64,000 nt of DNA from a virus. The notes under the pieces were generated by a model. The model was not told where the DNA came from and made no database searches. It saw only the letters and a list, made by a program, of their open reading frames with translations. Position 1 is the first letter of the stretch. Every line of letters begins with the position of its first letter. Of this stretch, positions 1,340-50,592 are shown in pieces. Location: IMG/VR virus record IMGVR_UViG_3300046804_001245, positions 32,001 to 96,000 of that record, one strand, 5' to 3'. The translations under genes and the position numbers were made by a program.

Positions 1340-2344
1340 ATGACAATTGTAATAGAAGATATATTAGCAAAATTAGATCCAAAAACTAGATCAAGAGTAC
1401 AGTCAGCAGTAGATGTTCAAGTAGAAAGACAGCCAACGCCTAGCATTGGTTTGAATCTTGCTCTAAAGGGAGGACTCGGCTTCGGAAGACAGGTCTTAGT
1501 TTGGGGTAATAAGTCTGCTGGCAAGTCATCTTTCTGTCTACAGATGATAGCAGAAGCACAAAAGAATGGTAAGACTTGTGCCTGGATTGACGCAGAAGCA
1601 TCTTATGATAAAGGTTGGGCGGAACGGCTTGGGGTAGACTCATCTAAATTGATCTATTCCCCAGCAAAAACAATTAACGATATGGTTGACGTTGCTACAC
1701 AATTGATGGAGGCAGAAGTCGACCTAATTGTAGTTGATTCTATATCTGCCTTACTTCCAGCAATTTATTTTGAAAAAGATAGTTCAGAATTAAAGAAACT
1801 TGAAGATACCAAACAGATCGGCGCAGAAGCAAAGGATATGACACATGCAGTTAAGATGCTTAATTATGCAAACAAGAACACGCTTCTTGTCCTCATATCA
1901 CAACAACGTAATCAATTTGGGTCTATGCATGCTTCGCATATTCCGACGGGTGGAATGGCGGTTAAATTCTTCTCATCTACTGTTATTAAACTATGGAGCT
2001 CGGAAGCTGAAGCGAATGCGATCAAGGCTGGCGTTAAAGTTGGCGATAAGATTATTGAACAAAGGGTAGGAAGACCAGTAAATTGGATTATTGATTATAA
2101 TAAGCTAGGTCCACCTAATCTTGCAGGACAATATGATTTTTATTACCAAGGAGAAACCATTGGTATTGATAGGACAGGAGAAGTACTTGATGTTGCCGAA
2201 ATGTGCGGAGTCGTGGAAAAAGGTGGCGCTTGGTACACCGTGGAAGGTGAGCGGCTACAAGGAAGAGCAAAAGCCGTGCAATTCCTTCGTGATAATCCAA
2301 AAGTAGTAGACAAACTTGTTAAGGCTATAGATGCCAAGTCTTAA
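1340..2344 (+). CDS. recA: RecA-like recombinase
   Basis: Walker A GNKSAGKS, WIDAE, Walker B LIVVDS, TGGMAVKFFSS, KGGAWY. Confidence 0.95.
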   Translation: MTIVIEDILAKLDPKTRSRVQSAVDVQVERQPTPSIGLNLALKGGLGFGRQVLVWGNKSAGKSSFCLQMIAEAQKNGKTCAWIDAEASYDKGWAERLGVDSSKLIYSPAKTINDMVDVATQLMEAEVDLIVVDSISALLPAIYFEKDSSELKKLEDTKQIGAEAKDMTHAVKMLNYANKNTLLVLISQQRNQFGSMHASHIPTGGMAVKFFSSTVIKLWSSEAEANAIKAGVKVGDKIIEQRVGRPVNWIIDYNKLGPPNLAGQYDFYYQGETIGIDRTGEVLDVAEMCGVVEKGGAWYTVEGERLQGRAKAVQFLRDNPKVVDKLVKAIDAKS

Positions 2345-9259: not shown

Positions 9260-9333
9260 GTGGCGTTAGCTCAGTTGGTCAGAGCCCCAAACTCATAATT
9301 TGGCCGTCGTAGGTTCAAGTCCTACACGCCACA
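9260..9333 (+). tRNA. tRNA with CAT anticodon (elongator Met or Ile2)
   Basis: Acceptor GTGGCGT/ACGCCAC, D-arm AGCTCAGTTGGTCAGAGC, anticodon arm CCAAA-CTCATAA-TTTGG, T-loop GTTCAAGTC; lacks initiator features. Confidence 0.93.
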
Positions 9334-9355
9334 CAAAAGAGAGTATAATAAAGAT

Positions 9356-9872: not shown

Positions 9873-9943
9873 TGCTATAATATATGTGGGTCGCCGTCAG
9901 GGGCCCACATATTAATTTATTCGCTTGAAGGAGGAATAAAATG
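9873..9943 (+). promoter_or_regulatory. extended -10 promoter and ROSE-like RNA thermometer of hsp20
   Basis: TGcTATAAT 9873-9881; hairpin TTATTC-G-CTT-GAAG-GAG-GAATAA (9917-9939) with UCGCU opposite the SD. Confidence 0.6.
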
Positions 9944-15009: not shown

Positions 15010-15243
15010 ATGTTAAACCTAAATTTACAAGGTGTTGAAATCTTCATAAAAAAAGCGCAGACAGAAAAAATAAATACTTTCTGGGAAAATTATGATCTTT
15101 TAATATGGAATAAAAATATCAACGGATATACAAGCAAAAACGGCATGTTTCGAAAGAATACATGGGGGACGGCAGAAAGAATAGCCGTCAACAATAATGG
15201 TATATGGAAGCTTCCTATAAAGTATGTCAAATATTTTAAATGA
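15010..15243 (+). CDS. hypothetical protein
   Basis: 77 aa downstream of consensus promoter. Confidence 0.7.
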   Translation: MLNLNLQGVEIFIKKAQTEKINTFWENYDLLIWNKNINGYTSKNGMFRKNTWGTAERIAVNNNGIWKLPIKYVKYFK

Positions 15244-15535
15244 TTTAGGTGTAGATACAGACGATTTTGACTGGTGGCATCTAGCAGTATGTCGTGGAAT
15301 GGATACAAATCTATTCTATGATAAGTATGAAGTAGACGCCAACATAGCAAAAAATATAGACGACGCATGCTTGTCATGCCCAGTACTTAAAATGTGCTAT
15401 GAATCAGGCATAGAAAAAGCAGAGTATGGAGTATGGGGTGGCGTCTATATGTCATCAGGAGAAATAGATAAATCTAAGAATCTCCACAAAACTCCAGAAA
15501 TTTGGAAGAAACTAAGGAGTAAAGGTGTCGCTTAG
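15224..15535 (+). CDS. whiB: WhiB-family Fe-S transcription factor
   Basis: AVC...ACLSCPVLKMC...YGVWGG: four Cys plus the GVWGG turn. Confidence 0.92.
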   Translation: MSNILNDLGVDTDDFDWWHLAVCRGMDTNLFYDKYEVDANIAKNIDDACLSCPVLKMCYESGIEKAEYGVWGGVYMSSGEIDKSKNLHKTPEIWKKLRSKGVA

Positions 15536-25030: not shown

Positions 25031-25249
25031 TTAGTTGCGATATTGCGCTGTATGAGTTTCACGATGTAATTCATTTTCTTTATCGTGATATTTCTTGATA
25101 TAACTAATTAGTTCAATTAGTCTTGCTTGTGTATATGGTGGATATGTTGTTGTTATGATATTAGCAAATAATGCTGGATGAAAATGGTGGTCATTTAGGA
25201 TTTCTTCTAATTGGTCGATTACTTTGTCTACTTTTGTCCGCCGTCTCAT
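25031..25249 (-). CDS. hypothetical protein
   Basis: 72 aa; GAAAGG RBS; AGTCAG-N10-TATACT promoter at 25274-25295. Confidence 0.7.
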   Translation of the reverse strand: MRRRTKVDKVIDQLEEILNDHHFHPALFANIITTTYPPYTQARLIELISYIKKYHDKENELHRETHTAQYRN

Positions 25250-25323
25250 TGTTCCGCCTTTCTATTTTGTGAGAGTATATCATAAAGGGCTGACTTGCGC
25301 CAGCCCTTGTCTGATCTATTTAT

Positions 25324-25470
25324 TTAGTTCTTTGCTTGCTTGGTCTCAGCAGAAAACTTTACGCCATTCTTTTCCGCCTCTGACAGGGCCTGCTTAGCTG
25401 CAGCTGAGAAACGGCCACGGCGGCCAACAGTAATTCCCTTGCTTGCTAGATATTCACGCTTTGTTGTCAT
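25324..25470 (-). CDS. Lsr2-like DNA-binding domain, stand-alone (48 aa, not in ORF track)
   Basis: MTTKREYLASKGITVGRRGRFSAAAKQA..., resembles the Lsr2 C-terminal REWA..G..V..RGR AT-hook; GAAAGGA RBS. Confidence 0.7.
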   Translation of the reverse strand: MTTKREYLASKGITVGRRGRFSAAAKQALSEAEKNGVKFSAETKQAKN

Positions 25471-26773: not shown

Positions 26774-26998
26774 TTACACATTGAAGTAGAATTCATCTCC
26801 CTCATTTAAATTATAAAACTCATTGAATTTATTCTTCAGCAAAGGGTCATCATACAATTGGATTAATTTCCAATCTGCATACATGGTTCCCTCATCTAAA
26901 TTGGACTGATTAAATTGGTCAAACAGTTCCATTGCTACAGCATGAATAATTTCACCTGTATCTGCTTCAGTCATATCGTCAAATACCGAGTGTTGCAT
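26774..26998 (-). CDS. hypothetical protein
   Basis: 74 aa; TGTCAG-N10-TATACT promoter at 27042-27063 inside the upstream gene. Confidence 0.65.
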   Translation of the reverse strand: MQHSVFDDMTEADTGEIIHAVAMELFDQFNQSNLDEGTMYADWKLIQLYDDPLLKNKFNEFYNLNEGDEFYFNV

Positions 26999-27771
26999 TA
27001 TGCTTTCTCCATTCTATATTCAGGTACGTGGTCGGAATCCAAGTATACTTTATGGGTCTGACATTCTTTGACATTATCTAGGTCTGCCTCCCCAAGCCAA
27101 TTACAAGCAGAGCAGATTTCTCCACAATCATTATCGCAATATTCCATTGTATTATCTGAATCACAATCACGACATTTGTTCTCATACTCTGAGATAGATA
27201 TAACTTCTCCACGAAGTAATTCCATTTCTCCGCCCCAACCTGTTTCTTCCTCATAAGATAGAGTTAGCAATAAACTAGGATATTGTGCAGATAATTTTTG
27301 GAGGGCAGGAACAGGAGGAGACCAAGCAGTATTAAAGTTATAATAAACTACTAAGTTCTCTCCATTTTCAGTAGGCCCTTCCATATATGTATCTGAATAT
27401 TCTTTATTATCAGATATAGCCACATCCCATTTTGTTCCCCAATTAGTTATATTCCATGAATACCAAGACTTATCTTCTAATCTAAGTTTTTCAGTATCAT
27501 TCCACCAATTAGGGTCAGATACATCTAATTCAGAACGAGTTGGTTGTGCAACATATTCTAAATCAGTTATACCTGCTTGGCGGTGGTTATAGATATTATA
27601 AAAAGCAAAGACAGGATTAGGATATGTAGTCTGAGATACTTCCATATTTCCAGTAGTTTTATTCCATGAATCATGTAACATGACGAATGGTTTATTCATT
27701 TGTTTTACAAGGTCATTTACCAATTCAGGAGAACCTTCAATTGTAAGACCGTTATAGCACCAATTTGGCAT
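26998..27771 (-). CDS. YubB/Api92-like ferredoxin-fold protein
   Basis: MPNWCYNGL, W...NWGTKWD, FNTAWSPP, YEEE; start corrected to the ATG after GAACGAAAGGAA. Confidence 0.75.
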   Translation of the reverse strand: MPNWCYNGLTIEGSPELVNDLVKQMNKPFVMLHDSWNKTTGNMEVSQTTYPNPVFAFYNIYNHRQAGITDLEYVAQPTRSELDVSDPNWWNDTEKLRLEDKSWYSWNITNWGTKWDVAISDNKEYSDTYMEGPTENGENLVVYYNFNTAWSPPVPALQKLSAQYPSLLLTLSYEEETGWGGEMELLRGEVISISEYENKCRDCDSDNTMEYCDNDCGEICSACNWLGEADLDNVKECQTHKVYLDSDHVPEYRMEKA

Positions 27772-27902
27772 TATATATTCCTTTCGTTCGGTTGAATGGT
27801 CCAATTATACAATGCCCCACCGACATTTGACAATATCCCCCAAGTTTCGGGAAATTACATTAGATCTCGTAACAGAGCTATATGGTCCTCAGGCATGCGG
27901 GC

Positions 27903-28047
27903 AAAAGCAAATCCCCCAGGAACCAACTGGGGGATATTGACACGTAGGGCTGCTAGTCAAACGAAAGGAATTAAGTAAACACTGCTTTACTTAGCGACTT
28001 GGGGAATCCCTATAGCCGCACCCTACATTTAAATGGGCCTAAGCCGT
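27903..28047 (-). ncRNA. candidate sRNA with anti-leader seed UUCCUUUCGUUUG
   Basis: TGgTATAAT at 28054-28062, closing stem GTAGGGTGC/GCAGCCCTAC, internal hairpins, terminator ATCCCCCAG/CTGGGGGAT plus TTGCTTTT. Confidence 0.65.
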
Positions 28048-28054
28048 AGATTAA

Positions 28055-28459
28055 TTATACCAGAAGAGGGACGTCGGTATATTTCTCTACGAATGTGCGT
28101 AGGTCCATTACGAAGAGGGGCTCATTGCTCATACCACGAACCTTGTTGTCCAAGTTATAGAATGAATCCTCTGTATGAAGACTAAAAGTCATTTGTGTAA
28201 AGTCGACGATAGCAATCTTGTGCTCGTTATCGCCAATCTCATTTACATGCAGGCCCCATCCAGTCTCCATAGACCAACCGTCGCCAATCATATGACTGAT
28301 TGCGATACGTGTTGCATATGAAGGGTCCGACCAACGAGGCTGTGCTTTTGCAACCGCCTCTGCTAAATTGGCAAGCATGTTGTGGCCCGCCCAGTGTCCA
28401 TACAGTACAATTGTGTTACCGTTCGGCTGTACAAATCCGAAGTTTGCTCTGTCACCCAT
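28055..28459 (-). CDS. hypothetical phage protein
   Basis: MGDRANF..LYGHWAG..RWSDPSYATRIAI, 134 aa. Confidence 0.75.
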   Translation of the reverse strand: MGDRANFGFVQPNGNTIVLYGHWAGHNMLANLAEAVAKAQPRWSDPSYATRIAISHMIGDGWSMETGWGLHVNEIGDNEHKIAIVDFTQMTFSLHTEDSFYNLDNKVRGMSNEPLFVMDLRTFVEKYTDVPLLV

Positions 28460-28652
28460 TTATTTCTTCCTTTTCTATTATTGGTGTTTCTTCTTTACGG
28501 TCTAATTCTATAATTTCATAGGCCCACTTGTCAAGGGTCTCTGAATATTTATTTCGGTGGTGGCCACAGAAATACAATTCGCCATTAGTTCCTCTAGATA
28601 GGAATAAGGCTTGAGCTGAGCATGAATCGCATTTAATCCACTCAGAGGTCAT
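28452..28652 (-). CDS. small actinobacterial-type Zn-finger protein
   Basis: CDSCSAQA...GELYFCGHH. Confidence 0.7.
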   Translation of the reverse strand: MTSEWIKCDSCSAQALFLSRGTNGELYFCGHHRNKYSETLDKWAYEIIELDRKEETPIIEKEEING

Positions 28653-28807
28653 TGTTTAATGTACCAAATTCGATTTTGTCTGCTATATCGTCCATGATTT
28701 GGCCTTCCTCGCCTAAAATAGCATCGGCTGCCCATTGACGAATATTGTTAATAATTACTTCACGAGTAAATTTAACACCATCTTCAAAACCATCTTTGTA
28801 GTCCATG

Positions 28808-29017
28808 TTACCTCCTGTAGCCTGTTGGCTGGTAATCTGTCTCCACTAGTATATCCAATTTATACTTAGATATCAAGGCTGAAACTTTTTCAATATTTCC
28901 CGTCCCAATATCAAATACAGTTGAATCTATCCAATATGGATCTAATCCAGCGAATTCAGCGTCCCAATATGCCGCTTTGAGGGCGGCAGTATTAGGAGCA
29001 CGTAGTTGATAATACAT
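28808..29017 (-). CDS. hypothetical protein
   Basis: 69 aa, coupled to upstream stop. Confidence 0.65.
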   Translation of the reverse strand: MYYQLRAPNTAALKAAYWDAEFAGLDPYWIDSTVFDIGTGNIEKVSALISKYKLDILVETDYQPTGYRR

Positions 29018-29571
29018 TAGTTCCAGTCCTGACTATCAACTAAATCAATATCCCATGAATCTACTTCGGTAGTAAAATCATTTGAGTCGACTGAAAGATT
29101 GTCAGAGAGATGATAACGAATATCAAAGTCATTAACTTCGGTAATATCTACCTCAGTACTTCCTGATACTGTAAGAGTTACAGTCCAGTTCATTGTTTGT
29201 TTTGGCTCATGGTCAAGGATTACACAAAGGTCACGAAGAACCTCTTCCTTGTCGACTGTATCTGAGAACCAACTATCAATAGTTAAATTATCGATAATCT
29301 GACCGATTTGTTTTTCTTGTGATTCAAGACGGGCATCACGATATTGTGCTTTTCTAAACATCTCGCTGATGTCTGCACGATTTAGAGTCCATTCTCTAAG
29401 TTCGCCATTTGGCAAGTGTTCATATGCTTTGATTGTTGGATTAGCGAAGAGCAAATCCTCCAATTCAGTTGCTTTATATAGTTTATAGATACTGTCATTT
29501 GATTCTGGCTGAATTTCACGAACAGTAGTTAATGCATGAGGATTATATGAATCCTGCGATACTATTTCCAT
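29017..29571 (-). CDS. hypothetical protein
   Basis: Start MEIVSQ after AACGAAAGGAAAC; the ORF-track extension to 29790 runs through a promoter and tRNA. Confidence 0.75.
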   Translation of the reverse strand: MEIVSQDSYNPHALTTVREIQPESNDSIYKLYKATELEDLLFANPTIKAYEHLPNGELREWTLNRADISEMFRKAQYRDARLESQEKQIGQIIDNLTIDSWFSDTVDKEEVLRDLCVILDHEPKQTMNWTVTLTVSGSTEVDITEVNDFDIRYHLSDNLSVDSNDFTTEVDSWDIDLVDSQDWN

Positions 29572-29686
29572 TTGTTTCCTTTCGTTGTTATTGACCGTAT
29601 TATAGCGGACCTGACTGACAAAATCCAGGGGTCCCGCCCCTTTGTCGTAACAATCTTTTTTGGATTTCACGTATGCGGGCGAGCTG

Positions 29687-29761
29687 CGACCCATACCAGA
29701 TTTGAACTGGTGATCTCCACCGTGACAAGGTGGCGCTTTAACCATGCTAAGCCAATGGGCC
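29687..29761 (-). tRNA. tRNA-Asp (GTC)
   Basis: GGCCCAT/ATGGGTC acceptor, CCACC-TTGTCAC-GGTGG anticodon arm, GTTCAAATC T-loop, G discriminator. Confidence 0.93.
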
Positions 29762-29793
29762 AATAGGGGGCCCCTTGCGGGGCCCGTCATTCT

Positions 29794-30804
29794 TTAGAAT
29801 GATTTTACAACCTGAAGAATTTTATTCTTCTCGGCGGTAATAATTGGGTCAAAACCAGAAGCAGAAGCCCACTTTGATTCTGAATTACTCTTGCGAGTAG
29901 GACGGAAATAATCAAGGCGTTCAGTAAGCGCATTGAAAGCGCCCCATTTTGTTCCCTTGATATTAGCATTGGTCGGAGAGTTATGGTAAAGGTCATTTAG
30001 CAAAACAACCTTGTTATCCCATTTTGTCTTAGCCAATTTAGAATCAGATTCGGCAGGCTTAGGATAAATTGTTTTTACAATATCCTGAAATTGCTTATCT
30101 GTAATTTCAGCAGCGAATAGAGATTGAGCCTCTTTTTCAAAAGCGTCGAAATAGCCAAGAGTAAGACCAAGAGTCTCACGAGCAATTTGAATCTTACCTT
30201 CCGCCGTTTGAGTGTGGCGAATCTTGAAAGATTGCTTTGATTGCTTCATCGCTAGGTTTAGCGTATTTTGGCATACGACACGAACAGGTGTAATCGCTGC
30301 CTGAACAGCAACAGAGCCGTCGTGTGATGTCCATACGATAAGATAAAGTTTAGTTTTATCGTTAGCACCTTTAGGGTCTAGCACCATTTCACGGGGAACA
30401 GTAAGAGAACCGAATACAACTTTGCCATTCTTTAGAGAACCAGCAGATTCCCAAGCGCAGCGAGAATCGCCGTCTAGGATATTGTCAGCGAATGAAAATA
30501 GTTCTTCATTCTGAACAACTTTATATCTAGCACCGACAGTTGAGAGAACATCTGTTCCGCCATTGAATGGGTTAGTTCTAGTCACGAGTTGTGAATTAGA
30601 AGAATCATTCCAAGATTCTGGAATGAAATCAGATACAGGTGAAAGCGAAACATTCCAATTAGAAAGTTTAGCCTCATCTAACATCATTTGAGTTGAAACA
30701 GATTCATCTTGTGCGAAGATTCTGTTTGCGAGATTGTGCCAAGCGGGAGTTCCACGCAAGGCGAAAGCGACTTCGTCGCCATTTATTTCTAGGTTATGAG
30801 CCAT
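29794..30804 (-). CDS. DUF932 family phage/plasmid protein
   Basis: MAHNL..PAWH.L, YKVVQN, ESAGSL.NG..VF, SHDGS, TPVRVVCQNTL, IRHT, GT.WGAFNA.TE..D. Confidence 0.88.
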   Translation of the reverse strand: MAHNLEINGDEVAFALRGTPAWHNLANRIFAQDESVSTQMMLDEAKLSNWNVSLSPVSDFIPESWNDSSNSQLVTRTNPFNGGTDVLSTVGARYKVVQNEELFSFADNILDGDSRCAWESAGSLKNGKVVFGSLTVPREMVLDPKGANDKTKLYLIVWTSHDGSVAVQAAITPVRVVCQNTLNLAMKQSKQSFKIRHTQTAEGKIQIARETLGLTLGYFDAFEKEAQSLFAAEITDKQFQDIVKTIYPKPAESDSKLAKTKWDNKVVLLNDLYHNSPTNANIKGTKWGAFNALTERLDYFRPTRKSNSESKWASASGFDPIITAEKNKILQVVKSF

Positions 30805-31098
30805 AGATTTATCCTTTCGATAGTTGATTAGTTCCTGAATTATACACTACGCTGCCGACATTGTAAATAGTTAGTTCCAATATAGGGCAAATCGGACACC
30901 CTGTGAGAAAGCTCACAGGATCCAGGGGTATTTTAGACTTGACGTAACGGGGCTTCGCCCCCCACAGTTGTGCGGGCCTTCAGCTCATGTACTCGTTGAT
31001 CACATCCAGCGCATTACACAATTGGCAGAAACATTCGCCATGGTCCATAACATCTTCCCAAATTAATTGCTGCAATTCGTGCACCGCATATGGACCGC

Positions 31099-31818
31099 TC
31101 ATTTTTTACTCGCAGAAAATCTTATGTCTGCTTTATTAAATACGCAGAGCCCACACGATACACAGGCTGAACCGTTAGTAGATATTAGCGGAATTCGTTT
31201 AGCATTTTCAGGACACTTTGCGCCTACTTTGCCAGTTAATTCTTTCATGACAGTTTCTGCCACCGCAAAATTCTTAGCGAGATACGCAAGGCGTGTGCCG
31301 TGATTAGTACGCAATTCTTTAGCAGTATCTTTATTTTCATCATCCGTCGAATAGTAAAGAGATAGATTAGCAATTCCCTTTAGAATTACGGCGGCGGAAG
31401 CGACACGGGTATAGACCCAAAATTGAACATCAGGGTGTTTCTCAATAACATTCTTCCACGCATAGGCATATGTCTCATTAAAGAAATCTCCGTCCCAGTG
31501 GATACGGAATAATTTATCGGCATTTTTCTTATCACAGTCCGCCTTGAATTCTACAATCATTTCATCTAGAAGAGAGACCATTGTTTCGATATTGGCATTG
31601 CGTATCAATTCCCAATTATGGAGCAGTACGGCTTTAACGCCTTTATACACCTTTTCTAATTTACCAGCATAGCAGACACTTTCGCAGATACTAGTTGCGC
31701 CAGGACATGAATAGGCCTTACCAGCAGGCAGGCCAAAAGTATTAGCAATCGTAGGTGTCTTCCCGTTAGGGCTAACGGCGTTAGCCACTTTTCGGTCATT
31801 AGAGCGTTTCAATTTCAT
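31099..31818 (-). CDS. GP88-like phage protein
   Basis: FGLPAG..SCPGA..C..VCYA, FRIHWDGDFF, FWVYTR, CP..CVSCGLC; leaderless start MKLKRS 7 nt after TAGAAT. Confidence 0.75.
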   Translation of the reverse strand: MKLKRSNDRKVANAVSPNGKTPTIANTFGLPAGKAYSCPGATSICESVCYAGKLEKVYKGVKAVLLHNWELIRNANIETMVSLLDEMIVEFKADCDKKNADKLFRIHWDGDFFNETYAYAWKNVIEKHPDVQFWVYTRVASAAVILKGIANLSLYYSTDDENKDTAKELRTNHGTRLAYLAKNFAVAETVMKELTGKVGAKCPENAKRIPLISTNGSACVSCGLCVFNKADIRFSASKK

Positions 31819-32697
31819 ATGGGTAATTCTATCACCACATACCGACAGCGAATTCGGCAACAGTATCTAGACATTCGGCGCATGCCCAATCATCGCCATA
31901 GACTTCGTATTCTGCCTCATCGACAAAATAGGTGGCAGTACCACAGATTTCATAGTATAAACAATTTACTTTTATCATTTAGTTTCCCTTTCGTTATGCG
32001 GATATTATAACAGATTAGACTGACAATTTATCTTCGACACGCCACCTTGCGACATATTTTTCTAGGTCTGCTAGGTTATCATCTGTGAGATAGGTGGAGA
32101 TTACGCCAAAAGAATATGCGTATTCGTTATAGCCTTTTTCTTTTGCGTAGGCTAGGAGGTCATTTAGAATATCGTTTCTGTCTTTCATTTATTTTCCTTT
32201 CGATATGCCGACATTATAAACTAAACCGCCGACATTTTCCATTCCAGCTTGGGCGTGTCGCAAATTATTTTTGTGGGGAATCTCACAAAATCCAGGGGTA
32301 TTTTTAAGTTGACGTAACAAGCTCGGCGCCCCCACTCTTTTGCGGGCCATTTTGGGAAGATGGGGCGGGGATCTAGATGATTACACAGTTCAAACCCGCC
32401 CCAAGCTTTATGCTAAACCAATTTCTACTTTAGTTAGTTTAGTTGGCTTATATTTAGTTACTGTTTCCATTGGTAGAAACAGAGCCACAGTTTTTCTTTT
32501 CTTTAGTTTATCATAAACAAAAGCACGAACATTTCCAGAAAATTGGTTTAGATTAGAAAAAACTAATTCTGTTAGGTGTTCTTTATCTACTCCGTCATCT
32601 GAGAAAAGAGTCAAATCATTTTGTTTTACGTCATCATATATTTCGATACGATACCGATTACGCATTTTATTTCTTTCTGTTAGTAGGGATTTTAGTT

Positions 32698-32729
32698 GAG
32701 CAGTTTAGCCTTGACTTGCTCAGGTCAGG
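32698..32729 (-). ncRNA. second copy of the CUGAGCA...AAACUGCUC pseudoknot motif
   Basis: CCTGAC-CTGAGCAA-GTCAAGG-CTAAAC-TGCTC in the leader of ORF 32408..32665. Confidence 0.55.
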
Positions 32730-32790
32730 TATCTTTTCCGTTAGGAGAAGTTTAGCATGGGGGACTAGATTTTGTCTAGCCCCCAATTTG

Positions 32791-33213
32791 CTATAAGTAT
32801 TTAGCGATAGAGTTGTAAGTAGATGTGGAAACTGTTTCCTCATCTGTCATCTTGAGAATACGGATAGCGTTCTCAATTTCCTCTACCATTTCCTTATATT
32901 GCCAATCATGGAAAGACTCAAAGTCTTTCTGCGGTTCAGTAGGAAGCGTGATAGTTCCTGCTGGTAATTCAAAAGAAACATAGATTTTGCCATTGTATCT
33001 GACATTGGCAGACAGTTCATCTGCCTTAGCAATTTTTTCAAGTGCTAACTTAGCAACTTCCTTGTTGTATTTCTCTTGTGCCTTTGAGAACTTTTCCTCA
33101 TTGACTTTTTGATTAGCCTTATCCTTTTGGAGTTGAGCCAATTTATTTTCAAGTGCCTTGATTACTTTGGTTGTAGCAATCTTGACATTTATGGATTTAC
33201 CATTTCTAGCCAT
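32791..33213 (-). CDS. hypothetical basic coiled-coil protein
   Basis: 140 aa, own promoter at 33244-33265 and AACGAAAGGAA leader. Confidence 0.8.
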   Translation of the reverse strand: MARNGKSINVKIATTKVIKALENKLAQLQKDKANQKVNEEKFSKAQEKYNKEVAKLALEKIAKADELSANVRYNGKIYVSFELPAGTITLPTEPQKDFESFHDWQYKEMVEEIENAIRILKMTDEETVSTSTYNSIAKYL

Positions 33214-36200
33214 TTTATTTCCTTTCGTTAGTTATGAGCAAGAATTATAGCAGGGGATACTGACATTGTATCCCCCACCTATTTAGTTATTTAGCAGGTG
33301 CGCTAGTCCAGCGTTCCTTGCCATTGACATCAAGCAGAATACGATTTACACCTGAAGGGTGATTATCTACTGCTTTGATAACGCCTGTCACGCCACTATT
33401 AGTGGTTGTGTAGGTCTGTCCGATTTCCAGAGTTGCCATTTATTTTCCTTTCGTTGTTGTGGAAGGCTATCCTAGCATAGCCCACCGACATTTTAGAGCC
33501 ACGCCTCTAGGTGGTGTTGTTCTACGATAGCCCAAGCGGGTGCGGTATTGAAACCTTTATAAGTTATGCCTTCGGGCATTGGTATCTCACGATCAGTTTC
33601 GCCTTCGTTGTAAGCCTCAATAGCCTCAATACACGGCAATACCATAGATTTAGGAACGGGCGGGTAATGATTAGAAGTTAGGTGAATACCAATAGCGGTA
33701 GATAAGTCTAATTCGCCATTGGCTAATTCTGTTGCGAAGGTGCTACCCATTTAGCACCTCGTTTCTCATTGTTTCAATTTCGTCAATAGTAGCGATTAGG
33801 TCTTTTACTTGGCTTTCAGTTAGTAATACTTTAGTAGCCTTATCTACTGCGGTGCTTGCTAGCATAGAAGCATAGACGAACAAGGCTTTGGCTATTTGTT
33901 CATCATCTAATTCTTTGTAAGAGTGTGTAATAAATTGAGCGAAGCCCATAGCCTCGTCATCAAAAATAGTTTCTTCAGTTGCCTGAATAAGAGCGGTTGC
34001 GGTTGCTATCATTTATTTATTTCCTTTTCGTTTAGTGGTGGGTAGATTATACACCTACCCACCGACAATTTAGGCAAGGGCTAAAATAGCCTGCGTTGCA
34101 CCTAGATTTACGGCATCTAATTCTGCCTGTAATTCCTCGGTTGTCATTTTAGTAGGGTCGCCTACTAATTCGGAGATAGCGTCACGATTAATCATCTCTA
34201 CCATTTCGGTAGGCATGCGTGAGATTTGTGGATAGAAAGAGCCATTAGTATCTAGTTTAGATACAAAATTAACTCCATTAACGGAGAACGGGAACGAAGC
34301 CCAGTTATCTGTGTTTAGCATTTTTTCCTTTCGTTTGTTTGATTAGCGCAATTATAGCGTAGGCTACTGACAAATTAGTTTTATTCTGCCCGCCAGCTTT
34401 GTGATAAACATCACAAAAATCCAGGGGTTTTAAACTTGACTCGTAACAGGAGTTTGCCCCACTCTCCTTTGCGGGCGATTTGTTGAAAGTTCAACCAATT
34501 TAGTTGATTATTCAACAAAACGTTTTTTATGTTTTGATTTTCTTTTGTAAATTTTTTTAGACGGAATTGGTTGCGCCGCATTACTACGGCGCAATTCCAA
34601 AACTTTTTTAATTCGTGGTAAATTTTGGAACACGATAATTGCTCGCTTCGTAGAATTTATTCGCATCAAATCTAGGATTATCTTTTGCGAACATCAACGC
34701 AAAATCAACAACCATTTTAGAAAAAATAGCGGGGTGAGTTTTATCTGAAACATACCGCAGAATTTCTGCGGTAGCGACATAGTCTTTACGAGTCATCACG
34801 ATTTTACTCCGTCACACTCAACAACATCAAAAACATCAAATTTTGCCAAGTCTGAGTCTGGCAATTGAAATAGAATTTTGTTTAGCGCAAAAACCGCTTG
34901 TAAATCGGTTTCTGCTTCGGTAACAAAACTAATCAAGACATTTTTTTTCATTAGTCATTCTCCTTATCAAATAGAGAGCCGTCATAGTGAGATGTTGGAT
35001 TACAGTCACAAGGCTCAATGTTGTAATCCTCAGCACCGCCATAGAAAAGCCAACCTTTTCCGTAGCAGGTATCGCAGTCAAAAGCGAGAGTATGAATTGT
35101 TTTCATTTTTAGTTTTCCTTTCGTGTTGTTTCGGTAATTGTAGCATTAGCCACCGACAAAATTGCCGATAGATTAGAATTGCGTTTTTCTTTTACTTCCG
35201 CTAAACGCTGGGCGATAATGAATTCTCTAAATTCTTTTAGATCCATTTTAGTTTTCCTTTCGTTTTGTTATTGGTTGAATTATAGCGTGGGGGTCTGACA
35301 TTTTCCCTAGTTAGGGAGAATGTCTGGACCATAATAAGCAACGGCGGAAACGATGTTCATCATTCCCTTATATTCATTACAGGATACGCATACGCTATTC
35401 CAGCGGTCATAAGTTTTTGAGCAGAATACGCAGATGTTATCCTGAAGGCTAAAGCCTAGATTTTCAATTTCTCTAAGTGTAGTCATTTAGTTTTCCTTTC
35501 GTAGTAAATCAGATTATAGCGGAAGCCACCGACATTTAGTCGGCAACTTTCACGGCGACAGTCGCCCATTTATTTCCGTTGAAACGGATAGCGTAGGCTT
35601 CATAGCCGTCAAGCCAAATATCCTCACGCTTTTCTGCGAAAGTAATTTCGCCGAATTGGTATTTTCTCGCAATAGAGCGAGGGTAATAAGTCTGACCTAC
35701 AAGAAGGTCGGGAATTGAATAAGTTTTCATTTAGTTTTCCTTTCATTTTGTTACTCCGTGAGTTTATCAAATTGGACTGACATTTTCAAATCGAAAATCG
35801 GTATAAATCGGACATTGTGATAATCATCACAAAAATAAATTAAAATAAATTTGACTGGTCAAACTTTTTTCGGGCGTGTCGCAGGATTTCGGGAAATCGG
35901 ACATAATGGACTTAAAGGATAAATCGCCCGCACAACTGTGCGGGTTGCCGCAGCTTTTGTCAAGCCGACACGCCGTTAGGTTAGTGTGAGATACGCCACA
36001 AGAAACCCTAGCCCTATACAGAGCGACAACAGGGCGGCGGCATGGAGTAGGTGTATCATTTAGCACACCTCTCACATGGTTCTATTGTATATTCATGACG
36101 ATCACCTACATAGATGACCTTTCTACCATAGCACATAGAGCATTTCATTTTAGACCGCCTCTTCCAATTCTGCCAAAGCCTCATCTTCTAATTCTAGCAT

Positions 36201-37242
36201 TTCATCTAGAGAGATTTCAATAGGGTTTATTTCTTCTTCATCATAGTATTCAACCTCATAGCCGTGTTGAATACTTTCATATTTGTATGAGTTATCTGTT
36301 CTATCAAACGAATACATTTATTTATTCTCCTTTACTTTCTGTTCTTCCAAATCTTATACGCTACCACTGACACGATAGCAATTCCAATTCCTAGCCATGA
36401 TGCGTAGAAATCAAATTGAGCGGTTTCGAAGGCAATTCCCTCAGAGCCTAGTTCTATTAGTAAGTATCTATCCATTTTGTTTATCTTCTTTCTCTATCTT
36501 GTATGCTGTAAGCATATCCTATGCTGCTGACAATTTCAGGGGTCAGACCCTATATTTTGTGTGAGTTACCTCACACTCTCTATAACCTCATAACCTAATT
36601 GGTTTAGGTCATAGACCCAATACTCTGTATCACAGCATAGGGCGGTGATAGTGGTATCCTCAATATCGCTAGTGATATTGGACAATTCATCGGAGAATTC
36701 TCCACACTCATCACAGGTGAAATTCTTTACTGTATATTCATATTTTAGTGACATATTCTTATGTCCTTTCTTTCTAATACTGATAATCTACCAGGTGCCG
36801 CCGACAATTACAAGGGGTCGGACCCTGTGTTGCTTGTGAATTATCTCACAAGATTTAGATTTTCATCGAAGGTGAGAACCTGTCTAACCTTGTATGTCTT
36901 ATCTATTGGACAAATCATGTTCCAACCTTCAGGGTCTACATGTCCGCAAGTTGGGCAAATTGGGTGAAATTTTTCGTATGTCATTTTCTGACCTACCTTT
37001 CTTTTTTTCTAATACTAAAATAATAACAGGGGGGTCTGACATTTTCAAGGGGACAAATGTCTCAATTCGGACATTTGTGATGTCAATCACACGATTATCC
37101 TGTGATATAGACCACATATGGGCGCAGTATTAGGACAAATCGGACATTGTAAAACTGTGCATCATACAAAATAAAAATATATTAACATTTTTAGAAATCT
37201 AAAATTATAGTCAACTAGAATAATAAATGCTATACTGGCTAC

Positions 37243-39508: not shown

Positions 39509-40069
39509 CTATTGATTAGGAAACTTTGCTAGCCATTTGCTAACAGATCCACTCTTAATGGATGACCATGAACTCCAGTCATTTCCGCCCTGGGTCATGT
39601 GATACGTTATCTCTGCGTTAATTACTGGATCAAACAATAGTACGTTCGATCTCAGGTCGAATTTCTCTTTGCGATCATCGCCAAGGTTTCCCAGCATGTT
39701 GATCTGAAAAATTCCGTAGGAACTGTCTCCAGTTTTCCTGTTGCCGTTATACGCCATTGGTCGTCCATTGGACTCCGATTTTGCTACGGCCCAAGCCAGT
39801 TTAAGGGCTTTGCCTTCAAAACCTACAGACTTGAGTAGTTGCAGCAACTCTTTATCTGTAAGCGTTTCTGAAGGTTTGTACACAGTGTTGCTGAATTTTT
39901 CCAGCGTTTGTTTCTTCAGTTGTGCTTCTGTTTTTGTCTCTGGTTTTACAACCAAAGCTTTGGCTGGCGTCATTACTTCAGGCTGGACTCCGAATAAGAA
40001 CAATGTTATCATTCCTATTACGGTCCAACTATGAGCAACATCGCTCAACCGTTGTTTGATATTCTCCAT
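39509..40069 (-). CDS. membrane-anchored lytic transglycosylase / lysozyme-like protein
   Basis: N-terminal TM; AVAKSESNG (catalytic E), SYGIFQIN, DP..NA, WSSW; start at MENIK by SD spacing. Confidence 0.85.
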   Translation of the reverse strand: MENIKQRLSDVAHSWTVIGMITLFLFGVQPEVMTPAKALVVKPETKTEAQLKKQTLEKFSNTVYKPSETLTDKELLQLLKSVGFEGKALKLAWAVAKSESNGRPMAYNGNRKTGDSSYGIFQINMLGNLGDDRKEKFDLRSNVLLFDPVINAEITYHMTQGGNDWSSWSSIKSGSVSKWLAKFPNQ

Positions 40070-40153
40070 TGGCATTTCCTCCTTTAGAGATAACGAACTA
40101 TAATAGTAACATTGTTTGGCAATGCCTGTCAAGCCAGTTGACCAGAAAATAAA

Positions 40154-46627: not shown

Positions 46628-49429
46628 ATGGCAGTTAGAATTCAGCTTCGTAGAGATACCGCCGCAAATTGGGTTTCTTCAAATCCAACACTGCGGGCGG
46701 GAGAAATTGGTATTGAAACAGATACCCTTAAATTTAAAGTAGGTACAGGTTCCACACCATGGAATTCAATTACTGCATATGCAAACGTAGTACCAGCAGA
46801 CCTAAATACAACCCTAAATGGATATTTAGAAGTTGGCGATTTGAGCAATACTGTGGCGGAAATTGTAGATGGAGCAGTCTATGTTCCAGGTACAGATATA
46901 GTATTTGAAGGAACTGCAAATGCTCATGAATTAACTCTTACTGCCCCAGATGTAACATCAGATAAAACAATTACATTGCCAGACGCTACAACCACTCTTG
47001 TAGGAACTGATGTTGCTCAAACTTTAACTAATAAGACTCTTACATCCCCCGTCGTTTCTGGTCTAAGCCTGTCTGATTCAAGCATCGTATTTGAAGGTGC
47101 AGTAGCAGACTCATATGAGACCACATTGACGGTCGGGGAACCAACAGCAGATCGCACAATTACTCTTCCAGATGTTACTGGTACAGTAGTTACAACAGGC
47201 GACACAGGTTCTGTAACAAATGCAATGTTAGCAGGATCAATTGCTAATGATAAATTAGCTGGATCTATCTCTAATGATAAACTAGCTGGATCAATATCAA
47301 ATGATAAACTTTCAAATTCATCAATTACAATTAACGGAACTGCAACATCTCTTGGTGGAACAAGAACTCTTGGTTCAGATGATATTTCAGAAGGTTCTAC
47401 AAATAAATATTTTACAGATGAACGTGCACAAGACGCTGTAGCGGCAGCAATAGCAGCAGGAACTCATACAAACGTAACAATTACTTATGATGATAATGCT
47501 AATACTCTAAGCTTTACAGGTGCAGTAACGTATACAGATGAAAATGCTCAGGATGCCGTCGGAAATGCCGTTGGAAACGGTCTAGACTATGACGATAATA
47601 CTGGAGCAATTTCTGTAGATCCATCAGAATTTGCCCTAAGCGCAGTTGGTGCGCCTACTGGCAATATTGATCTCGGTACATATAAAATTACAAATTTAGG
47701 AACTCCAACATCATCGGCAGATGCTGCAACTAAGGCTTATGTAGATAATACTACTGCTGGACTTAACTTTCATGCCGCCGTTCATGCAGCAACAACTGCA
47801 AATCTAGATGCAACATATGCAAATGGTACAGGCGGAGTAGGTGCAACTCTTACTGCAAATGCTAATGGAGCCTTATCATTAGATGGGCACACACTTTCAG
47901 CAGATGAGCGAGTTCTTGTTAAGAATCAAACGACTGGATCTCAAAACGGTATTTATGTAGTAACAGCCACAGGAGATGGATCAAATCCATATATCCTAAC
48001 TCGTGCTACAGATGCTGATAATTCACCAGCAGGTGAAGTAGCATACGGAGATTTCTGCTTTGTACAAAATGGCGGGCAGGCAGGATATGGATTTATTGTA
48101 AATACAACTGGTTCAATTACAATTGGAACAACCGCAATTTCATATGTTCAGTTTAATGCTGGTCAGGTTGTAGTTGCTGGAAATGGTCTAACCGAAACAA
48201 CCCCAGGAACCCTGGCAATTAATACAGCAGTTACTGTTGACCTAAATACAGCACAAACTCTGACCAATAAAACAATTACAGGATCATTCACAGGTAATTT
48301 AACTGGAAATGCAGATACTGCAACAAATGGAGTAGTTACAACTGGATCTTATTCAAATCCTTCGTGGATAACTAGCCTTGGATGGTCTAAAATATCATCT
48401 ACTCCAACTACAATTTCAGGATATGGAATTACAAATGCAGTTGTAACAGATGCAGCAAATACTATTACTGCCGCTTCTGCTTCAACAAAACCATTAATTA
48501 TTAAAGCAGCAGCATCTCAATCTGCCAATCTTCAAGAGTGGCAGAATAGTAGTGGAACTGTAATGGCAACAATAGATTCCAATGGAAATCTAAAAACAGA
48601 ATATCTTTTAGATAAAGCAAATGGTGGAAGTTATATTCAACTTCAATCAAATAATGCAGTATTGTTGTCTACACGCTCATCAACAAATAAGGGTTTACTT
48701 GTTCAAGGTGTTGCTTCACAATCAGCTAGCCTTCAAGAATGGCAAAATTCAAGCGGAACAGTATTAGCTAAAGTTGATCCTTCAGGTAATTTAACAGCAG
48801 CATCTATAGTTAAATCTGGAGGAACTTCAAGTCAATATTTAATGGCAGATGGTTCTACAAATTCAACTGTAGCAACAACATCTGGTGGAACTGGATTAAC
48901 CTCATATGCAACTGGAGATATCCTTTACGCCTCCGCCACAAATACATTAAGCAAACTTTCGGCAGGAACAGACGGATATCTACTAACACTATCATCTGGT
49001 GCTCCTACATGGGCAGCAGCACCAATTAGCTTGCCAGCTCAAAGCGGGTCTACCGTAGGCAAGTATTTACAGTCAGATGGGACAAGCGCTTCTTGGCAAA
49101 CTCTAGTAGTTCCAATTGAAACAGGTACTGCTACTCTAACTGCAAATACTGCAACAACTATTAGCACTACCGCCCTTTCAGCATTCACCTCAATTGAATA
49201 TATGGTATCGCTAAAGCAGGGATCAAAGGTCAGAACATCTAAGGTAGTAATGCAGACTGACGGAACTTCTGTTGATATGACAGAATTTGCAATTACAGAA
49301 ACTGGCGGAACAATGTCAGGAGTAGTAGTTTCAGCAACAACAGCATCAACAAATGGAGTTTTACAGGTAACTGTAACAGATGCATCAAGCACAAACGTAG
49401 ATGTAAAATTCAGCAAAGTAAAGTTGTAG
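46628..49429 (+). CDS. long tail fibre with Mtd-type N-terminal domain
   Basis: IQLRRDTAANW...NPTL..GEIGIETDT.KFK.G; 3 x GSIxNDKL; SQSANLQEWQNSSG repeats. Confidence 0.85.
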   Translation: MAVRIQLRRDTAANWVSSNPTLRAGEIGIETDTLKFKVGTGSTPWNSITAYANVVPADLNTTLNGYLEVGDLSNTVAEIVDGAVYVPGTDIVFEGTANAHELTLTAPDVTSDKTITLPDATTTLVGTDVAQTLTNKTLTSPVVSGLSLSDSSIVFEGAVADSYETTLTVGEPTADRTITLPDVTGTVVTTGDTGSVTNAMLAGSIANDKLAGSISNDKLAGSISNDKLSNSSITINGTATSLGGTRTLGSDDISEGSTNKYFTDERAQDAVAAAIAAGTHTNVTITYDDNANTLSFTGAVTYTDENAQDAVGNAVGNGLDYDDNTGAISVDPSEFALSAVGAPTGNIDLGTYKITNLGTPTSSADAATKAYVDNTTAGLNFHAAVHAATTANLDATYANGTGGVGATLTANANGALSLDGHTLSADERVLVKNQTTGSQNGIYVVTATGDGSNPYILTRATDADNSPAGEVAYGDFCFVQNGGQAGYGFIVNTTGSITIGTTAISYVQFNAGQVVVAGNGLTETTPGTLAINTAVTVDLNTAQTLTNKTITGSFTGNLTGNADTATNGVVTTGSYSNPSWITSLGWSKISSTPTTISGYGITNAVVTDAANTITAASASTKPLIIKAAASQSANLQEWQNSSGTVMATIDSNGNLKTEYLLDKANGGSYIQLQSNNAVLLSTRSSTNKGLLVQGVASQSASLQEWQNSSGTVLAKVDPSGNLTAASIVKSGGTSSQYLMADGSTNSTVATTSGGTGLTSYATGDILYASATNTLSKLSAGTDGYLLTLSSGAPTWAAAPISLPAQSGSTVGKYLQSDGTSASWQTLVVPIETGTATLTANTATTISTTALSAFTSIEYMVSLKQGSKVRTSKVVMQTDGTSVDMTEFAITETGGTMSGVVVSATTASTNGVLQVTVTDASSTNVDVKFSKVKL

Positions 49430-49440
49430 GAGGGAAGTAA

Positions 49441-50592
49441 GTGTCAGATAAAAACTTTAAAGTAAAATCTGGACTAAATATCCCGATTACTTCCGCCGCC
49501 ATTCTAACTACTGATGCAAGCGGAAATATTTCATCCACTGCAGTTCTTCCAATTACGGCTGGCGGAACAGGACAAACATCAGCAACTAATGCTATAAATG
49601 CCTTACTTCCAGTACAAAACGGATCTACAGTAAATTATGCTCTACAATCGGACGGCAGCAATGTAAATTGGGGCAAATTATATAATCAAACAATTAAGAA
49701 TAACGGAACAACAGTTACCCCAAGAGGAATAGTAAATGTAGTAGGTGCTACATTTTCAGATGATTCTGGAACAGATACTACAACAATTACATTTACAGAT
49801 ACTACTGGAGTTTCAACATCTGGCGGATCTACAATTACTGCCGCTTCGGCATCTACAAAGGGTTTAATTATAAAAGGCGCAGCCTCTCAAACCGCTAATC
49901 TTACTGAATGGCAAACAAATGCAGGAGCTATGGTTGCATATGTAGATTCAAATGGATCAGCATTTTTCAATAGTAATCTTCAAGTCAATGGAGTTGCTGC
50001 AGTAGGCGGAGGCCCACAAGCATATTCTCAACTTATTATTCAAACAAATTCAGCAACTAGAAATGGCTTAGTAATAAAAGCAGCATCTAGTCAAACCGCC
50101 AACCTTCAAGAATGGCAGAATAATAGCGGTACAGTATTAGCTTCCATTGATCCTAATGGACAAATAAGAACACCACAGATTTTAAATACAGCCTCTTTTA
50201 ATAATTCTCGTTTACAAATGACAAGTACTGGTTCCTTATTTGATGTAGGCGTGGCTTCTAATGTGGCTTTACGTGTTCGTGGCGCCGCCTCCCAAACCGC
50301 CAATCTTCAAGAGTGGCAAAATTCGGGGGGAACTGTATTGGCTAAAGTAGATTCATCTGGCTCTATGTTTACCACAACTGCGACGGCAGGAACAAATACA
50401 ACTCAAGTAGCAACAACAGAATTTGTTAAAACTGCGATAGATAATTTAATAGCATCTGCGCCAGGAACCCTAGATACTCTTGATGAAATTGCACAAGCTC
50501 TAAATGATGATCCTAATTTCTATACAACTATAACTACTTTGACAAATGCATTAGCAGAGCAAGATTCATATACACTAATGGGGGTCTTTTAA
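49441..50592 (+). CDS. tail fibre protein
   Basis: DKNFKVK start, three SQTANLxEWQ repeats, ATTEFV...APGTLDTL.EIA.AL.DDPNF. Confidence 0.8.
   Translation: MSDKNFKVKSGLNIPITSAAILTTDASGNISSTAVLPITAGGTGQTSATNAINALLPVQNGSTVNYALQSDGSNVNWGKLYNQTIKNNGTTVTPRGIVNVVGATFSDDSGTDTTTITFTDTTGVSTSGGSTITAASASTKGLIIKGAASQTANLTEWQTNAGAMVAYVDSNGSAFFNSNLQVNGVAAVGGGPQAYSQLIIQTNSATRNGLVIKAASSQTANLQEWQNNSGTVLASIDPNGQIRTPQILNTASFNNSRLQMTSTGSLFDVGVASNVALRVRGAASQTANLQEWQNSGGTVLAKVDSSGSMFTTTATAGTNTTQVATTEFVKTAIDNLIASAPGTLDTLDEIAQALNDDPNFYTTITTLTNALAEQDSYTLMGVF

Follow-up and report, generated by a model that had tools for sequence, protein, structure and literature searches.

Phage promoters resembling PafBC boxes in an uncultured lake phage of actinobacteria

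An uncultured 107-kb phage of actinobacteria starts about twenty small genes from promoters that, judged from sequence alone, are built like those switched on by the single-stranded-DNA alarm protein PafBC of its hosts, and the phage therefore probably borrows this host switch. The pattern TGTCRG-N10-TANNNT occurs 19 times on the minus strand between positions 27042 and 37041 of the window, the 64,000-nucleotide stretch that was analysed (positions 32,001 to 96,000 of IMG/VR record IMGVR_UViG_3300046804_001245), where about 1 site is expected, and only once elsewhere in the complete 106,882-bp genome. A first-pass annotation, made from the letters of the window alone, had recorded this array, and its observation is confirmed. 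Its interpretation, that much of a host-takeover region has been placed under the DNA-damage sensor of the host, is only partly supported. No paper describing such an arrangement in a phage was found, in agreement with the annotation.

The promoter array and its conservation

All 19 coordinates of the first-pass annotation match TGTCRG-N10-TANNNT on the minus strand, and the single further match in the genome lies on the plus strand at 49442. Dinucleotide shuffles gave a mean of 1.03 sites (sd 0.92, maximum 4) and none of 100 shuffles reached 20 sites, whilst the chance expectation of 1 per 131 kb per strand calculated in the annotation is arithmetically right. The spacing is strict, with 19 exact sites at 10 nt, 1 at 9 nt and 0 at 11 nt, and variants with one mismatch occur at background level on both strands. 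The AGTCAG variant that had also been listed exists and carries a TATACT -10. Every site precedes a minus-strand ORF and several (27042, 31826, 32004 and 35137) lie, as had been stated, inside the 3' end of the preceding ORF. Each site is located 24-43 nt before a start codon that has a Shine-Dalgarno sequence and a shared CGAAAGGA leader, with the exception of one site 7 nt before its start codon, which implies a leaderless mRNA and places the ATG exactly where a start 7 nt after the -10 would fall. The features of the island and its surroundings are collected in the table.

Features of the island and of the rest of the window; promoters and transcription units are inferred from sequence
Position	Strand	Feature	Following gene or remark
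27042..37041	-	Island of 19 PafBC-type promoters	Each heads a short transcription unit of one to a few small genes
37020..37041	-	Promoter TGTCAG-N10-TATTAT	ORF 36841-36984 (47 aa), start codon 35 nt after the -10
36785..36806	-	Promoter	ORF 36566-36754 (62 aa)
36511..36532	-	Promoter	ORF 36332-36475 (47 aa)
36351..36372	-	Promoter	ORF 36150-36317 (55 aa)
35761..35782	-	Promoter	ORF 35536-35730 (64 aa)
35513..35534	-	Promoter TGTCGGTGG..TATAAT	ORF 35307-35486 (59 aa)
35279..35300	-	Promoter	ORF 35109-35246 (45 aa)
35137..35158	-	Promoter	ORFs 34951-35106, 34796-34951, 34608-34796 and 34411-34581
34351..34372	-	Promoter	ORF 34070-34321 (83 aa)
34046..34067	-	Promoter	ORFs 33743-34012 and 33493-33750
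33469..33490	-	Promoter	ORF 33287-33439 (50 aa)
33244..33265	-	Promoter	ORF 32791-33213 (140 aa) and downstream ORFs
32213..32234	-	Promoter	ORF 32015-32188 (57 aa)
32004..32025	-	Promoter	ORF 31832-31978 (48 aa)
31826..31847	-	Promoter, -10 ending 7 nt before the ATG	GP88-family gene 31099-31818; leaderless mRNA predicted
30839..30860	-	Promoter	DUF932 gene 29794-30804; orthologous promoter aligned in 47 variants
29599..29620	-	Promoter	ORF 29017-29571 (184 aa) and downstream ORFs to 28055
27804..27825	-	Promoter	ORF 26998-27771 (257 aa, DUF1281_C domain)
27042..27063	-	Promoter	ORF 26774-26998 (74 aa)
25274..25295	-	Variant AGTCAG-N10-TATACT	ORF 25031-25249; possible weak member of the class
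29686..29761	-	tRNA-Asp	Inside the island, downstream of the DUF932 gene
25324..25470	-	48-aa ORF with an Lsr2 C-terminal-like RGR DNA-binding motif	Probably the phrog_6269 Lsr2-like hit
40103..40132	-	Canonical TTGACA-18-TACTAT promoter with TG	Head of the minus-strand block, before the SLT_3 lysozyme-like gene 39509-40075
15224..15535	+	Phage WhiB	Marker of an actinobacterial host
1340..2344	+	Divergent phage RecA	Possible source or handler of single-stranded DNA during infection

The array is also a property of related phages, as 80 related IMG/VR phage loci carry 1,195 co-oriented sites and 2 antisense sites. When promoters were anchored on the leader and the -10 alone, without use of the motif, the consensus wwawTGTCRGtgg...tGnTATAAT was still recovered, with TGTCRG at exactly -16 in 308 of 398 unique promoters (T.83, G.82, T.88, C.92, R, G.80) and GTC as the most informative triplet. 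There is no -35 signal in this set, the information content at that position being 0.04-0.6 bit and reflecting only A/T-richness, and sigma-70-type matches are not clearly enriched (70 found against 57 ± 6 expected). The element is non-palindromic, since inverted partners are only slightly above a shuffled control (113 against 73 of 824). Promoter windows do fold better than shuffles, but mainly because of terminator-like hairpins upstream, and an operator palindrome or hairpin-promoter was therefore rejected. An Rfam search returned only the tRNA. Across 47 variants of the orthologous DUF932 promoter, AATGTCRG and TATAMT stay fixed while the spacer drifts. Five complete relatives (designated G001-G004 and G008) carry 12-20 sites each, nearly all on one strand, and the motif extends to distant lineages, one of which (G012) has 25 sites, nearly all TGTCRGTGG, whilst another (G011), which has 44% GC and shares only 7 weakly similar ORFs with this phage, has 8 sites on one strand. 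This spread favours a reader supplied by the host.

This architecture equals the published PafBC motif, tGTCgg(N10)tA(N3)T, a -26 element without a -35 in which GTC is read by PafB and in which the two G bases are reported to be almost invariant across actinobacteria (PMC8635444). The sites are real promoter-like units that have the sequence, the exact spacing, the non-palindromic form and the lack of a -35 that define PafBC-type (RecA-NDp) promoters.

The phage, its relatives and its host

The host of the phage is an actinobacterium. The phage encodes WhiB (43.5 bits) and has an Lsr2-like PHROG hit with an RGR motif, and the best hits of its DnaE, GP88, DUF932 and WhiB proteins are phages of Streptomyces, Mycobacterium, Microbacterium and Arthrobacter. 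However, although the first-pass annotation had likened the motif to a mycobacterial promoter, the host is not Mycobacterium-like, as the phage has 39% GC, belongs to an uncultured IMG/VR clade and has Streptomyces phages as its cultured relatives, at 50-57% protein identity. No near-identical cultured phage was found. The nearest cultured relatives are Stanwilliamsviridae (BillNye, Samisti12 and kin; DnaE 56%, WhiB 49%, DUF932 50% and GP88 up to 57% identity), which are also large siphoviruses with many small genes but differ in GC content and host. Although the hosts of BillNye and Samisti12 belong to a genus in which RecA-NDp promoters are documented, these phages have 0 and 3 sites, at the level of a reversed-pattern control, and phiC31 likewise has no array.

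Searches for the host species itself with the phage WhiB recovered only three phage contigs mis-binned into cyanobacterial, Bacteroidetes and Arenimonas MAGs when assembled genomes were scanned, and only phage relatives or short metagenome contigs in word-index and full-library searches, so that the identification of the host rests at the level of the phylum. In metagenomic actinobacteria of 48-68% GC, a scan that itself required the motif, and that does not link these bacteria to the host of this phage, found the same promoter before recA; in those of 48-54% GC it lies 31-37 nt before the start codon, and some have a second copy before the neighbouring HTH gene.

No WYL domain, sigma factor or integrase was found in the complete phage genome, and no WYL domain in five complete relatives. 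The possibility raised in the first-pass annotation, that a phage-encoded WYL or PafBC mimic is located outside the window, is therefore without detectable support, and if the reader is PafBC-like it is the host's. The absence of both tyrosine and serine integrases also led to rejection of a prophage-induction reading.

Possible readers of the array

The favoured reading, to which a probability of about 0.55 may be given, is that host PafBC and the housekeeping sigma-A read these promoters. In this view the island is a regulon of at least 19 hybrid promoters in a lytic, WhiB-encoding siphovirus of Actinomycetota, each with a -26 element (wwawTGTCRGtgg), a spacer of exactly 10 nt, a near-consensus -10 (TATAAT, often with TGn) and no -35. 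Host RNA polymerase with sigma-A would utilize them efficiently only when PafBC, an HTH-WYL-WCX heterodimer, sits between sigma region 4 and the -26 element, a mode of action termed sigma adaptation (PMC8635444, PMC11804915). As PafBC is switched on by single-stranded DNA (PMC11804915), the small genes of the island (DUF932, GP88, a DUF1281_C protein and many orphans) would fire when such DNA appears in the infected cell, either from processing of the entering genome or from phage replication and recombination. The sequence architecture, its conservation and the actinobacterial nature of the host are established by the analysis, whereas PafBC as the reader, its binding to these sites and the dependence of the promoters on it, the presence of pafBC in the host, the positions of the transcription starts, single-stranded DNA as the trigger and the timing are all inferred. 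The terms 'early' and 'host takeover' used in the annotation likewise rest only on gene size and position. Several observations weigh against this reading. The -10 is near consensus and about half of the promoters have an extended TGn, which in actinobacteria may be enough for transcription without any activator; the cultured Streptomyces relatives lack the array; about 40 ORFs of the island have no known function and one of them could encode a reader; and a dependence on single-stranded DNA seems awkward for genes needed at the very start of infection.

A less likely alternative is that a phage-encoded factor reads the -26 element and recruits host sigma-A polymerase, in the manner of MotA/AsiA of T4, in which case the likeness to PafBC sites would be a result of convergence or mimicry. 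Such a factor could be carried in the virion or made from the canonical promoter at the head of the minus-strand block, as the first ~3 kb of this block (37.1-40.1 kb) contains seven ORFs of unknown function and no TGTCRG sites, and the lack of the array in the Streptomyces phages, whose hosts belong to a genus with documented RecA-NDp promoters, is also consistent with it. However, no HTH, WYL or sigma domain is detectable in the genome above threshold, although there is one sub-threshold HTH_11 hit in a 47-aa frame and many orphan ORFs remain, the match to the host motif extends to the flanking tgg and to the exact spacing, and the distant lineage G011 shares the promoter type but almost no genes. 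Proteins shared with G011 were checked as candidate readers and those looked at are acidic or enzymatic, not DNA-binding.

It is more doubtful that these are constitutive -10-only or extended -10 sigma-A promoters in which TGTCRG is an operator for something else, such as a shut-off repressor or a nucleoid protein. Many actinobacterial promoters lack a -35, and in the motif-independent set the -10 is a near-consensus TATAAT with T at -3 in 51% and G at -2 in 61% of promoters. Nevertheless, the element is non-palindromic with no clearly enriched inverted partner, keeps a fixed 10-nt distance from the -10 that is typical of a contact with polymerase, and is identical to a known activator site. 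A role chiefly as a decoy, also proposed in the first-pass annotation, in which about 20 high-quality sites per genome copy, multiplied by replication, would soak up PafBC and blunt the host's DNA-damage and defence response with transcription of the island as a by-product, is unlikely, as every site is placed precisely before a gene with a ribosome-binding site and on the strand of those genes, whereas a decoy would need neither orientation nor a -10. Recent duplication of one promoter-leader cassette, suggested by the shared leader CGAAAGGAAA, or chance, is already disfavoured because spacers and flanks differ between sites while the two boxes stay fixed over 74-99% divergent relatives, and because of the shuffling result.

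Related systems and implications for actinobacterial phages

The closest known counterparts are the PafBC-dependent (RecA-NDp, recA P1-type) promoters of Mycobacterium and other actinobacteria (PMC8635444, PMC11804915), which share the 22-nt architecture, the GTC core, the frequent GTG extension and the host phylum. Here, however, the promoters are found on a lytic phage, at about 20 in 10 kb, before small orphan genes rather than DNA-repair genes, and have a -10 closer to consensus (TATAAT). Middle promoters of phage T4, with a MotA box at -30 and a -10 read through AsiA/MotA sigma appropriation, similarly drive a class of phage genes from hybrid promoters in which an activator box next to a normal -10 replaces the -35, but T4 encodes its own activator and remodels sigma region 4, whereas here no phage activator was found and the box equals the site of a host activator. 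Other WYL regulators that sense single-stranded DNA, including DriD of Caulobacter, SiwR of fast-growing mycobacteria and CapW/BrxR of defence islands, are also alarm regulators gated by single-stranded DNA, and SiwR also acts at -26. These regulators recognize different sites, SiwR using a palindrome with a GGA triplet, and control host or defence genes rather than phage genes.

PafBC-type sigma adaptation is so far known only as a host DNA-repair switch. It is about as likely as not that a widespread clade of lytic lake actinophages has handed the control of about twenty small genes to this activator, such that the cell's own sensor of damage or invasion would trigger the phage programme. 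This would be the first natural phage regulon run by a WYL activator through sigma adaptation, and a phage counterpart of the entry genes of conjugative plasmids that are triggered by single-stranded DNA. If a large and abundant phage clade does utilize this switch for its own genes, arrays of TGTCRG-N10-TATAAT become a sequence signature by which phages of uncultured actinobacteria can be spotted and their transcription units marked, and WYL alarm regulators, which are often seen as part of anti-phage defence control, can be turned into a phage timing device.

A strand-specific array of promoter-like sites

The pattern TGTCRG-N10-TANNNT matches 20 times in the window, and 19 of these matches lie on the minus strand of a single island, whereas dinucleotide-preserving shuffles of the sequence give only 1.03 ± 0.92 matches, with a maximum of 4. 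The first-pass annotation had reported at least 19 such sites on this strand and its observation holds, as the matches fall at exactly the coordinates that it listed. The window is bases 32001-96000 of a complete genome of 106,882 bp, an IMG/VR virus record with terminal repeats, which contains no further site outside the window, and a reversed-pattern control gives 0 and 3. The spacing is strict, with 19 sites at 10 nt, one at 9 nt and none at 11 nt. Variants with one mismatch occur at background level on both strands, apart from one AGTCAG form that precedes a gene. The ‘direct terminal repeat’ of the record is only 85 bp of exact overlap and may be an assembly overlap of a circular or permuted genome rather than a physical repeat.

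The genome is organized as plus-strand gene blocks on both sides of one minus-strand block, which is composed of about 45 small ORFs and harbours the island. Every one of the 19 sites is followed by an ORF start, 24-43 nt after the -10 and through a shared leader, aCGAAAGGAAAa, that carries the ribosome-binding site. However, at the site preceding the GP88-family gene the ATG lies 7 nt after the -10, the position at which a transcription start 7 nt after the -10 would fall, so this mRNA would be leaderless; leaderless mRNAs are common in actinobacteria. Four sites lie within the 3' end of the preceding ORF. The recognizable island products are DUF932, GP88, a DUF1281_C protein and a 48-aa Lsr2 C-terminal-like peptide, together with a tRNA-Asp located between the DUF932 gene and the next promoter, whilst the remaining products, roughly 40 proteins, are orphans. 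The promoter windows fold more stably than shuffled sequence (mean -11.7 against -9.2 kcal/mol, RNA parameters), although this comes mainly from GC-rich hairpins just upstream, which are probably terminators of the preceding unit; a few inverted repeats bracket the -10. A small RNA antisense to the shared leader has been proposed within the island, but an Rfam search finds nothing there. The coordinates of these features are collected below.

Coordinates of the array and of other features (window positions unless stated otherwise)
Feature	Position	Strand	Remark
Minus-strand block	~24.6-40.1 kb	-	about 45 small ORFs
Island of 19 TGTCRG-N10-TANNNT sites	27042-37041	-
Twentieth match to the pattern	49442	+
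Variant AGTCAG-N10-TATACT	25274		precedes a gene
Head of the minus-strand block	37.1-40.1 kb	-	no TGTCRG-N10-TANNNT site; begins with a canonical TTGACA-18-TACTAT promoter before an SLT_3 lysozyme-like gene
Site before the GP88-family gene	31826-31847	-	7 nt from -10 to ATG; site and gene start together span 31818-31847
Promoter windows folded; two spacer forms	27000-37100	-
Sites with inverted repeats bracketing the -10 (examples)	34046-34067; 33469-33490	-
Proposed small RNA antisense to the leader	27903-28062	-	no Rfam match
tRNA-Asp	29686-29761	-	inside the island
tRNA-Met	9260-9334	+
933-aa protein	46628-49429	+	N-terminal Mtd_N (major tropism determinant) domain
Terminal overlap	genome positions 1-85 and 106798-106882		85 bp, exact
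PafBC-type promoters of metagenomic recA contig L233	L233:9167-9188 and 9916-9937		also in L226, L231, L236 and L246

Conservation of the element and its match to the PafBC motif

Eighty related IMG/VR loci, identified through the DUF932 protein at 74-99% identity, carry 7-20 sites each, which in total amount to 1,195 sites co-oriented with the genes and 2 antisense. To avoid circularity, promoters were also anchored on the leader plus the best -10 only and, of 398 unique promoters, 308 have TGTCRG exactly 16 nt before the -10 hexamer. The resulting logo reads wwaw-TGTC-R-G-t-g-g ... t-G-n-TATAAT, in which GTC is the most informative triplet and there is no information at the -35 position. In 47 variants of the orthologous DUF932 promoter, AATGTCRG and TATAMT are fixed while the spacer changes, alternating mainly between TGGGG-type and ACCCC-type starts. 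In this phage and in the related loci (L013-L092), the spacer directly after the box similarly comes in two alternative forms, TGTCGGTGG(G) and TGTCAGACCCC, even at the same orthologous promoter.

Five complete relatives (G001-G004 and G008) carry 12-20 sites each, nearly all on one strand and clustered together. The array is also found in more distant genomes: G008, with 53% portal identity; G012, with 54% DUF932 identity and 25 sites in 15 kb, nearly all TGTCRGTGG; and G011, which has only seven weakly similar ORFs in common with this phage. The last of these is a phage fragment of 62 kb (L220-L222), with 44% GC and an estimated completeness of 36%, that carries 8 sites on one strand, spaced 2-4 kb apart, and an open frame of 3,461 aa.

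The published PafBC consensus is the 22-nt tGTCgg(N10)tA(N3)T, composed of a PafBC-specific -26 element and a canonical -10, with no -35. The GTC triplet is read by PafB, and the two G bases are reported as almost invariant across actinobacteria (PMC8635444). PafBC itself is activated by single-stranded DNA (PMC11804915). A second mycobacterial WYL activator, SiwR, also acts at -26 but on a palindrome with a GGA triplet, whereas the phage element is non-palindromic and of the GTC type.

The host and candidate readers of the element

The phage encodes WhiB and an Lsr2-like peptide, and its DnaE, WhiB, DUF932 and GP88 proteins find only or mainly phages of Streptomyces, Mycobacterium, Microbacterium, Arthrobacter and Gordonia, of which the nearest are Stanwilliamsviridae at 49-57% identity. 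The host is therefore an actinobacterium. However, with 39% GC and no near relative found among cultured phages, the phage does not resemble mycobacteriophages. Contigs of this clade (L096, L097 and L098, from genomes G005-G007), including one of 109,918 bp, are binned into public MAGs labelled cyanobacterium, Bacteroidetes and Arenimonas; these look like binning errors, because the Arenimonas family sample has no WhiB. The description of one of these MAGs points to a lake time series, from which a freshwater habitat of the clade is inferred. No integrase was found in the phage, which therefore looks strictly lytic.

Six-frame Pfam searches found no WYL domain in the genome, even at E ≤ 10, and none in the five complete relatives. 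The same type of search of the phage found no sigma-70 region 2, and only a sub-threshold HTH_11 hit in a 47-aa frame. Family scans of 42 island ORFs and 52 other ORFs revealed replication, repair and lysis functions, including RecA, DnaB, primase, thioredoxin, a pyrimidine-dimer glycosylase and a class II ribonucleotide reductase, but no regulator other than WhiB. A host factor is thus the simplest reader of the box, and the spread of this promoter type to a lineage with almost no shared genes (G011) points the same way.

As a substitute for a host genome, the metagenome collection was scanned for the motif followed, at a set distance, by a start codon and the RecA FGKGS[IV]M signature written in low-GC codons. 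Of 26 hits, 16 encode RecA with the actinobacterial N-terminus (DREKAL..AQIE.QFGKGSVMRLG), on contigs of 48-68% GC. The RecA of one of these contigs, L233, matches PDB entries 1ubc and 1g18, the M. smegmatis and M. tuberculosis RecA, at about 600 bits, against about 480 bits for 2rec and 1u94, which are E. coli RecA. Its gene order, ftsK-pgsA-cinA-HTH-recA-recX-miaB-miaA, is the actinobacterial arrangement. The promoter there lies 31-37 nt before recA and, in one group of contigs of about 50% GC, a second copy lies before the HTH_3 (ClgR-like) gene just upstream of recA. The recA leader, aatcGAAAGAGGA, resembles the phage leader, aaCGAAAGGAaa. As the search demanded the motif, these hits indicate only that uncultured low- and mid-GC actinobacteria carry the same promoter at recA, without linking them to this phage as its hosts.

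Despite this, the Streptomyces phages BillNye and Samisti12 have 0 and 3 sites, at the level of the reversed-pattern control, and phiC31 has none. The array is therefore not a general trait of phages whose hosts use PafBC-type promoters.

A possible regulon under host PafBC

The first-pass annotation proposed that the phage has placed much of an early, host-takeover region under the DNA-damage sensor of its host, and this interpretation is only partly supported. The array, its conservation and the actinobacterial nature of the host rest on the analysis itself, whereas the reading of these sites by PafBC and their response to single-stranded DNA are inferred from the match to the published motif, and ‘early’ is inferred only from gene size and position. 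The most likely mechanism, with a probability of about 0.55, is that host PafBC adapts sigma-A to these promoters. Full-text searches for PafBC or RecA-NDp together with phage terms found no description of phage promoters of this type; the promoter and activator class is a known one, and what differs here is its occurrence as an array on a phage.

Among the alternatives, a phage-encoded reader is unlikely but survives best, as the many orphan ORFs could hide one. A less likely scenario is that the promoters are independent of any activator and the box serves another purpose, since the consensus -10, with a frequent TGn, could work unaided. That the array is primarily a decoy for PafBC is the least probable of these readings. 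If the favoured mechanism is correct, sigma-A would be adapted to the phage promoters by a protein of the host, so that the island would fire when single-stranded DNA appears.
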